From: a virus
Taxonomy: Duplodnaviria; Heunggongvirae; Uroviricota; Caudoviricetes
DNA: 5,958 nt
Virus record (IMG/VR): IMGVR_UViG_2698536337_000006
Strand: one strand, 5' to 3'
Shown here: piece by piece, positions 4,301 through 5,872 of the stretch
How positions within the stretch are numbered: position 1 is the stretch's first letter
How the letters are laid out: the number at the start of each line of letters is the position of its first letter
Notes under the pieces: generated by a model
Told to the model about the DNA's origin: nothing
Databases searched by the model: none
What the model saw: the letters and a program-made list of their open reading frames with translations, nothing else
Program-made: the position numbers and the translations under genes

Positions 4301-4445
4301 AACGCCCGGCTTCATCCGGATTTTCTGAGGCCAGCGTGTTCACCACCACCGTGGTGCTGTTACGTTTTGCTTTCAGCTGGATTGTGCAGTTCTGTACCGG
4401 TTTTCCTGTGCCGTCTTTCAGTACACCTGAAATCTTTACTGCCAT
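1362..4445 (-). CDS. stf: Side tail fibre protein, lambda Stf-like, mosaic (about 1027 aa from the ATG)
   Basis: The N-terminus [26 protein letters not shown] and the C-terminus ...[31 protein letters not shown] match lambda Stf. Between them lie a long Ala/Ser/Thr-rich low-complexity shaft, two tandem 44-aa phage-fibre repeats, and a ~230-aa Cys-containing middle domain. The track starts the ORF at a GTG (4451); the ATG at 4445 reproduces the lambda Stf N-terminus and has a GGGG run 5 nt upstream. Confidence 0.92.
2787..3050 (-). repeat. Two tandem 132-bp (44-codon) tail-fibre repeats inside stf ([27 protein letters not shown]... / [27 protein letters not shown]...)
   Basis: The repeat is visible directly in the stf translation and in the DNA, with a period of 132 bp (K codons at 3048-3050 and 2916-2918). 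It corresponds to the phage tail fibre repeat family. Confidence 0.75.
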
Positions 4446-4451
4446 ATTCAC

Positions 4452-4483
4452 CCCACAAAAAAGCCCGCCTGAACCGGCGGGCT
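4452..4483 (-). terminator. Rho-independent terminator between lom and stf (minus strand)
   Basis: GC-rich 7-8 bp stem gcccgcc / ggcgggc with loop tgaacc (4463-4482). On the minus strand it is followed by TTTTTTGTGGGG, and the U-tract runs into the stf ribosome-binding region. Confidence 0.5.
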
Positions 4484-4509
4484 GTCATAACACTGTGTTA
4501 CCTGGCTAA

Positions 4510-4876
4510 TCAGAATTTATAACCGACACCCACGATGAAACCGTCAGTGCGCCAGAGACGTGTTGCTGTGGCGACCGTCATCACTTCCGGTCAGCACATC
4601 GTGCGTTTTCCCCTTATTGTCAGTTACGCGGATATAATCCCCGGAAAAAGTCGACACACGGCTGTAAGCCACACCCGCCATCGCATACGCGCTGAACCAT
4701 TCATTCACGCGCACAGACGGCCCCGCCATCACGCTGAACCAGCGGTTACGCACGGAATCTTCATGCCAGCGGGTATCGCTGTAACGGGTCAGCTGGCGAT
4801 TCTTGTCTCCTGCATAGCTGAATGACGTCACCAGCCCCAGCGTATCCGTAAACTCATAACGGTATTTCACGTTAAT
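4510..4876 (-). pseudogene. lom: lom fragment, 5'-truncated at the IS21 junction (Lom/Ail/PagC family outer-membrane protein)
   Basis: Translation VKYRYEFTD...SAYAMAGVAYSR... matches the lambda Lom interior. The homology begins abruptly at 4876 without start or signal peptide. The family's C-terminal strand WRTDGFIVGVGYKF-stop (ends 4510) is in a different frame from the body, which stops at 4544. Confidence 0.75.
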
Positions 4877-5129
4877 AGCTGGCGGGTCTTTCTGGCTGGC
4901 GGTTCAGGGTATTTGAGGTAGCGTCTGACCGTCCGTTCAGAGCAACCAATCTGAGTCGCAATATCGACGATGTACGCGCCCTGCTGGCGCATTTGCTTTA
5001 TCATGTAAAAGTCCTCTCTGCTCAGCATGTTGATGTCCTTTCTGGTGTGAGAACCTTAAGGAAACAACATGTTGGGTGGAGCGGACAATCCAAATGGCGA
5101 ATTACCGTCTTATATCACTGGCGCTGACA
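4877..5129 (-). mobile_element. istA: IS21-family remnant: left terminal inverted repeat (outer end TGTCAG at 5129) plus the first 50 codons of the istA transposase
   Basis: Minus-strand translation from the ATG at 5028 gives MLSREDFYMIKQMRQQGAYIVDIATQIGCSERTVRRYLKYPEPPARKTR, the helix-turn-helix N-terminus of IS21 IstA as I recall it. About 100 bp of IS end precede the ATG. Homology stops at ~4877-4880, where the lom sequence begins, so the rest of the IS is absent. Confidence 0.75.
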
Positions 5130-5441
5130 CTTCATCACCTCCGGACGTAAATCACCATCCTTTGGTGCATTCAGAAACGCGTTCAGTGTCCCCGGTGCAT
5201 CAGTCGGTGCCACATCAATATCCCCGACACGGGTTGGCTGCCAGCCGTTACAGTGAAGCGCAACCTCGTAATACCCCGGCTCAGCCTCAATCACATAAGC
5301 ACCGTTATTGTCCGTCACGCAAGTGGCAACAACGTGTGCCACAACGGTCGGACTGGTTCTTCTGGCCCGCAGTTCAATCGCACAATTTACGACAGGTTTA
5401 CCCGCCCCATCTTTCAGTACACCTGAAATCTTTACTGCCAT
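5130..5441 (-). pseudogene. stf: N-terminal fragment (~104 codons) of a second, divergent side-tail-fibre allele, interrupted by the IS21 end
   Basis: [28 protein letters not shown]...PGTLNAFLNAPKDGDLRPEVMK is roughly 40-45% identical by eye to the N-terminal domain of the intact stf. The reading frame then runs into IS-derived codons (CQRQ-stop at 5115). Confidence 0.7.
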
Positions 5442-5872
5442 ATTCACCCCACAAAAAAGCCCGCCTGAACCGGCGGGCTGTCATAACACTGTGTTACCTG
5501 GCTAATCAGAATTTATAACCGACACCCACGATGAAACCGTCAGTGCGCCAGAGACGTGTTGCTGTGGCGACCGTCATCACTTCCGGTCAGCACATCGTGC
5601 GTTTTCCCCTTATTGTCAGTTACGCGGATATAATCCCCGGAAAAAGTCGACACACGGCTGTAAGCCACACCCGCCATCGCATACGCGCTGAACCATTCAT
5701 TCACGCGCACAGACGGCCCCGCCATCACGCTGAACCAGCGGTTACGCACGGAATCTTCATGCCAGCGGGTATCGCTGTAACGGGTCAGCTGGCGATTCTT
5801 GTCTCCTGCATAGCTGAATGACGTCACCAGCCCCAGCGTATCCGTAAACTCATAACGGTATTTCACGTTAAT
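5410..5872. repeat. 463-bp direct repeat, copy B
   Basis: Identical to 4414..4876. The track ORFs 4544..4870 and 5540..5866 translate identically. Confidence 0.9.
5448..5479 (-). terminator. Rho-independent terminator downstream of lom, copy 2
   Basis: Same hairpin and U-tract as 4452..4483; it lies inside the direct repeat. Confidence 0.5.

Follow-up and report, generated by a model that had tools for sequence, protein, structure and literature searches.

A perfect 463-nt repeat in a Shigella sonnei prophage contig is very probably a product of scaffolding and gap filling

The perfect 463-nt direct repeat in this prophage tail-fibre region very probably arose by scaffolding and gap filling of a short-read draft, and does not exist as such in the bacterial chromosome. 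The window analysed here, the whole stretch of 5958 nt, is the entire contig CXBL01000210.1 of GCA_001250715.1, a draft Illumina assembly in a Shigella sonnei accession series. An initial annotation, made from the letters of the window, had named a chimeric assembly of repeated prophage sequence as an alternative to recombination. This alternative is supported by an N in the deposited record at the novel join, by the sequence that results when one repeat unit is removed, and by joins of the same kind in sibling assemblies. Most likely, the isolate has a pair of ordinary lambdoid tail-fibre loci at separate sites, called A and B here.

The repeat pair and its gene context

A base-by-base self-comparison of the window confirmed the perfect direct repeat described in the initial annotation. 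Positions 4414–4876 and 5410–5872 are the same over 463 nt without a mismatch, at an offset of 996, and the second-longest identical run at this offset measures only 10 nt. A general repeat finder returned the same pair, stretched at lower identity into the diverged 5′ ends of the stf genes. Identity over 463 nt is beyond what chance could give. The features of the window, in the direction of its genes, are as follows (all genes lie on the minus strand).

5958–5540, minus strand: lom (Ail/Lom family, PF06316) of the locus-B type, cut by the contig end
5410–5872: repeat copy 2, with the same content as copy 1
5410–5551: 142-nt stretch common to loci A and B (lom end, hairpin, stf start), 100% identical; the overlap of the locus-A and locus-B matches
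5479–5458, minus strand: second copy of the terminator-like hairpin (structure scan)
5441–5130, minus strand: stf′, a 5′ fragment of 104 codons from the tail-fibre gene of the other prophage (locus A), truncated by IS21
5129–4878, minus strand: IS21 left-end stub, 252 nt
4877: scaffold gap, N as deposited and T in the window, joining the IS21 stub to the lom 3′ part
4414–4876: repeat copy 1 (lom 3′ part, terminator-like hairpin and stf codons 1 to about 11)
4876–4544, minus strand: lom 3′ part, within repeat copy 1
4483–4462, minus strand: terminator-like hairpin and T run between lom and stf (structure scan)
4445–1362, minus strand: complete stf (side tail fibre gene, 1027 aa); 3688 blocks of the collection, complete S. 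sonnei genomes among them, encode the exact product
1362–781, minus strand: tfa, tail fibre assembly, 193 aa (PF02413, Caudo_TAP; annotated in E. coli as 'tail fiber assembly protein')

Copy 1 runs on into the full stf gene, and the stf codons 1 to about 11 that it was said to contain occupy 4445–4414. Copy 2 is flanked by more lom upstream (5873–5958) and by the foreign stf′ fragment downstream. Open reading frames, Pfam matches and alignments all agree with the order lom–stf′(5′)–IS21(5′)–lom(3′)–stf–tfa and with the gene identities assigned initially. The initial annotation was also right that this is no simple tandem duplication; that explanation is ruled out, as the 533-nt spacer between the copies derives from a different locus.

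The genes form a side tail fibre module of the lambda type, with PF06316, PF08400 and PF02413 following in order downstream of J at the chromosomal loci. The stf′ reading frame extends four codons into IS21, to a stop at 5115, and its product of 108 aa carries PF08400 (phage_tail_N). Over the first 104 residues it shares 50% protein identity with the N-terminus of the full Stf. A promoter scan of 4380–5958 returned zero sites. Exact-protein matches are on record for the ATG-start Stf′, the full Stf, the 108-aa Lom′ ORF and a 149-aa antisense ORF. No exact protein match was obtained for the 53-aa IstA′ fusion ORF or for a 110-aa GTG-start Stf′; Stf′ is recorded from its ATG (108 aa). A 53-aa ORF at the IstA′ coordinates, 4867–5028, is listed in the deposited record; because the N at 4877 sits within this ORF, the recorded product cannot equal the translation of the window.

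Some further properties of the window concern stf, tfa and the region beyond them. The low-complexity part of Stf is rich in Ala, Ser and Thr and corresponds to about 3000–4050 (stf codons ~130–480), where the G+C content is 59–63% and the AT skew strongly negative; it yields long spurious ORFs of 249–258 aa in other frames on both strands. Stf also has an internal repeat that begins KGI[VI] (the following 22 protein letters are not shown). The Rfam family IS009 (RF02111) gives a full-length match at 821–1019 on the minus strand, scoring 218 bits where the gathering score is 117. This match lies wholly within the tfa coding sequence, and the family model may have been built on prophage tfa, rather than marking a separate RNA gene here. 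Downstream of tfa, positions 1–780 are AT-rich (28–35% G+C), hold no annotated gene and are kept at 99.5% in about 280 E. coli genomes. They contain a weak inverted repeat (277–301 and 607–631, 76% complementary). In S. sonnei chromosome records and in E. coli strain 104 this region is adjoined by IS1, and the contig ends beside it because IS1 comes next there.

Two tail-fibre loci as sources of the sequence

Locus B has the order J–lom(B)–stf–tfa–IS1. The exact 1027-aa Stf occurs in thousands of assemblies, among them S. sonnei 53G (HE616528.1) and 75/02 (CP019689.1) and in the long records CP104423.1 and CP049165.1 (strain names of these S. sonnei records from PMC5447701). The lom sequence at 5540–5958 is 100% identical to locus B in S. 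sonnei chromosome records. In one of the retrieved records, which are cited here by L numbers, window 5958–5410 corresponds to L010 9484–10032 at 100%, and both repeat copies align to a single stretch, L010 9570–10032. Likewise, 5958–5410 and 4876–1 of the window both align at 100% to one locus-B stretch; the 463 nt are therefore single-copy in those genomes, which have neither IS21 nor the stf′ piece at this locus.

Two deletions were seen at locus B. Compared with the locus-A lom (L002 9338–9937), the locus-B lom is without 78 nt near its 3′ end and is called as 160 aa versus 199 aa; by its sequence it is probably a decayed gene. S. sonnei 53G, which differs from the window in this further respect, and some drafts (L012, L018, L019) are without about 65 nt inside tfa, at window 1176–1238. 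Their Tfa is called as 150 aa versus 193 aa, with four further substitutions downstream, and the loss looks like a strain-level inactivating deletion.

Locus A has the order J–lom(A)–stf′, the latter interrupted by IS21. An identical 108-aa Stf′ is present in the complete genome of S. sonnei FORC_011 (CP010829.1, 1.86–1.88 Mb) and in seven short draft contigs, with IS21 directly after it every time. Wherever the upstream sequence suffices (FORC_011, L003–L007, L030), the lom that precedes stf′ is the other allele, about 90% identical to that of locus B. The 533-nt insert of the window, made up of the stf′ 5′ fragment and 252 nt of the IS21 left end, matches locus A at 99.4–100%; window 5551–5077 is 100% identical to the locus-A contigs L004, L005 and L007. 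FORC_011 has the same stf′/IS21 junction and 99.4% identity to window 5551–4880. It differs from the window in that its IS21 runs past the point where the window breaks off, in its upstream lom allele, and in what comes afterwards, which is not stf–tfa but further IS3-family and IS21 fragments. The FORC_011 IS21 that truncates stf′ is itself split by an IS3-family element, with more IS fragments after it (L002 10414–13811), and locus A is a heavily decayed prophage end. The proposal in the initial annotation of two tail-fibre loci, possibly of two prophages, is thus borne out, with the stf′–IS21 segment coming from the second S. sonnei prophage locus.

The assignment of the stub to IS21 rests on its terminus, on its gene and on its similarity to annotated elements. 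The terminus, TGTCAGCGCC... (TGTCAG), lies at 5129, as fixed by comparing two insertion contexts. It is followed by the istA start codon at 5028 and by about 50 istA codons, in keeping with the IS21 family, in which a terminal sequence precedes an istA with an N-terminal HTH. Window 4880–5139 has 98.5% identity to elements annotated 'IS21-like element IS21 family transposase istA'. The BLAST extent would place the end of the element at 5139; this was rejected, the extra 10 nt being a chance likeness of the flanks that the two insertion contexts expose. A complete IS21 has full istA and istB and both inverted-repeat ends, and the window holds only 252 nt of the left end before the N.

From the alignments, the assembly path appears to pass from locus B (lom) into locus A (stf′) via the 142-nt stretch that the loci share. 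It could be argued that this join, running from the B-type lom through the 142 nt into stf′ (5958–5130), is real and that only the junction at the N is an artefact. Gene conversion would then have given locus A the locus-B lom allele, and two true contigs, each internally correct, would stand in series. Consistent with this, there is no N within 5410–5551, and lambdoid prophages are well known to exchange DNA through shared tail-gene sequence. However, every locus-A record with enough upstream sequence carries the other lom allele before stf′, without the 78-nt deletion. At 5958 the contig starts no more than 22 nt from where the locus-B contigs L027 and L028 start, as would be expected if material had been inserted into a contig of locus B, and an exact repeat of 142 nt would exceed the short reads typical of such projects. 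We consider a real join at this point unlikely.

The junction at position 4877

The deposited CXBL01000210.1 (L026, reverse complement) differs from the window at a sole position, with N in place of T at window 4877 (L026 position 1082). This is the first base outside repeat copy 1 and falls precisely on the junction between the IS21 stub and lom; the junction is therefore a one-N scaffold gap and not sequenced DNA. With a T in the window in place of the N of the public record, the gap was hidden from a reading of the letters alone. The context in the deposited record is ...AAGACCCGCCAGC N ATTAACGTGAAATACC. The final two bases of the IS21 stub (4879–4878) are GC, and IS21 has CA there. IS21 in L001 and L002 (an unrelated E. 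coli copy and FORC_011) runs on ...CGCCACAAAATGG, and the window reads ...CGCCAGCT (...CGCCAGC[N]), followed by lom. The two bases before the N match neither junction partner.

A genuine duplication should have determined sequence across its novel junction, and here that place is taken by the N. A gap character between non-colinear flanks is what a false join would leave: on the left is IS21 at about nt 250 (locus A), and on the right is L010 9570, which lies upstream of L010 10032, a point that the contig had already passed. The initial annotation had described the right boundary of the rearrangement as internal to the IS. The break does lie about 250 nt inside IS21, but the boundary itself is the N scaffold gap. 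We also rejected an IS21-mediated adjacent deletion or cointegrate as the cause. In such events the junctions lie at the IS terminus, and here the break is about 250 nt inside the element and coincides with an N.

Removal of one 996-nt unit (4414–5409) from the window leaves 4962 nt. This collapsed sequence is found with zero mismatches in the long S. sonnei records L010, L011, L013 (75/02, complete) and L015, so that the window minus 996 nt is 100% identical over 4962 nt to the J–lom–stf–tfa locus of 75/02 (CP019689), CP104423, CP049165 and L011. Two drafts from sibling assemblies, L027 and L028, also contain it without a mismatch; these contigs are 5043 and 5036 nt long and start just 22 nt upstream of the contig of the window. 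Exact colinearity with a finished genome is restored by taking out the suspect segment, as expected of an artefact. The ends of the contig also lie where repeats break an assembly: one abuts IS1, and the other lies in lom where sibling contigs also begin.

The initial annotation had suggested a check for the same arrangement in related genomes, and it was absent from every other assembly searched. Among 5426 complete E. coli genomes, no place covers at least 80% of 4300–5958, and none covers at least 80% of a 176-nt junction probe, the match ending at 4876 among the best matches listed. Scans with a junction pattern, in which the N position was left free, gave 0 matches both in JGI metagenome contigs and across 185,579 species-representative genomes. 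A genuine duplication would be expected to recur in relatives, or to have its junction spanned by one or more independent assemblies, and every S. sonnei locus retrieved carries the segment in a single copy.

The same fault is present in other members of the batch. Accessions of the CX series adjoining this record belong to the S. sonnei isolates of Holt et al., 2012 (PMC5447701), and several sibling assemblies (prefixes CXBH, CXFN and CXFP) contain single-N joins whose flanks are not adjacent in finished genomes. In L030, an IS21 stub of about 245 nt is followed by a single N and then by the locus-B gene J (locus position 6978). In L020, a P2-type fibre gene is joined through a single N to the 3′ part of lom (locus position 5983). 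In L003 (33–5792), a single N marks a 742-nt backward jump inside J, and this jump produces a spurious 'J' ORF of 1919 aa with internally repeated segments. Such recurrence within one batch is in keeping with an error of assembly. Not every single N marks a wrong join: at L003 position 1448 the flanks are colinear and exactly one base apart. Predicted proteins from such records in public protein collections are partly artefactual.

The initial annotation had favoured a scar of unequal or illegitimate recombination. As a genuine rearrangement, the window could be derived from a nascent strand at locus B that switched, during replication or repair, to the other prophage via the 142-nt homology, copied stf′ and 252 nt of IS21, and then switched back non-homologously into the locus-B lom. 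The outcome would be a 996-nt insertion, 533 nt of it foreign, flanked by a 463-nt duplication, and the N would be an uncalled base, for which the true one-base gap at L003 position 1448 offers a precedent. In favour of this, the given sequence shows no interruption, a very recent event would leave a perfect repeat such as this one, and the species has the donor locus. Yet this course requires two template switches, one of them without homology, and the only unsequenced base of the contig would have to sit by coincidence exactly on the novel junction, beside two bases that fit neither partner. The arrangement is missing from all other assemblies searched, and siblings join the same IS21 stub to a different point of locus B across an N, which is the behaviour of an assembler and not of inheritance. 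With an N at the junction, no other assembly searched containing that junction, and a 996-nt deletion that restores the reference sequence, the recombination scar is not supported, and we judge a genuine rearrangement very improbable.

A chimeric molecule from library preparation, or a minority subpopulation, could have been assembled as if clonal. In principle this would give a junction unsupported by other genomes, although nothing specific points to it. Reads crossing such a junction would have given bases and not an N, and the same type of join recurs in siblings at other positions. There is hardly any chance that this is the origin of the repeat.

Origin of the repeat and its significance

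The preferred explanation, scaffolding followed by gap filling, accounts for both the repeat and the N. As loci A and B share 142 identical nt, the assembly graph would branch at the lom/stf boundary. The scaffolder would have put the resulting pieces in series, with a gap left beside the 142-nt stretch. During gap filling, the left edge would have grown along locus A, through stf′ and then 252 nt of IS21, while the right edge would have grown backwards along locus B, through the stf start, the hairpin and the 3′ part of lom. GapFiller would leave one N where its extensions fail to overlap; since the two extensions would have come from different loci and never overlapped, a single N would remain at 4877. 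The backward extension along locus B would leave 463 nt of this locus present twice. The exact sequence of assembler steps is one that we infer. For the scaffolder to join the pieces, read pairs must have linked them, which is a point against an artefact, but such pairs are explained because the prophages share repeats.

From the accession series, we infer that the assembly was made by the Sanger Velvet/SSPACE/GapFiller pipeline. In this high-throughput pipeline, according to its authors, scaffolding is done by SSPACE, gaps are written as Ns and 120 GapFiller rounds follow; they call the two programs greedy and able to make false joins (Page et al., 2016, PMC5320598). GapFiller is described as extending both gap edges base by base and closing a gap only at an overlap of at least 10 nt (Boetzer and Pirovano, 2012, PMC3446322). 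The window resembles the false joins of SSPACE and GapFiller in having a single N between stretches that are not adjacent in complete genomes, with both gap edges extending into repeated prophage or IS sequence, and the siblings show the same pattern. The comparison differs from a documented case in that the pipeline is assigned to this record by its accession series.

A real IS disruption of the lom/stf region in a defective lambdoid prophage is known from the Rac prophage of E. coli K-12, where lomR of the lomR–stfR–tfaR region is split by an IS5 element; PGAP names close relatives of the stf of the window as stfR. The IS of Rac is a complete element with sequenced junctions, and we know of no long direct repeat of lom–stf sequence and no IS-internal break there.

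In multi-copy prophage regions, the many single-N joins of this draft batch give rise to false direct repeats and to genes that are too long. Other draft-assembly windows may hide gaps in the same way, and retaining or flagging N positions would halt such false findings early. For S. sonnei, the repeat itself carries no biological weight. The loci beneath it are ordinary, previously sequenced and already known: one lambdoid tail-fibre locus of S. sonnei, and another that IS21 has inactivated.
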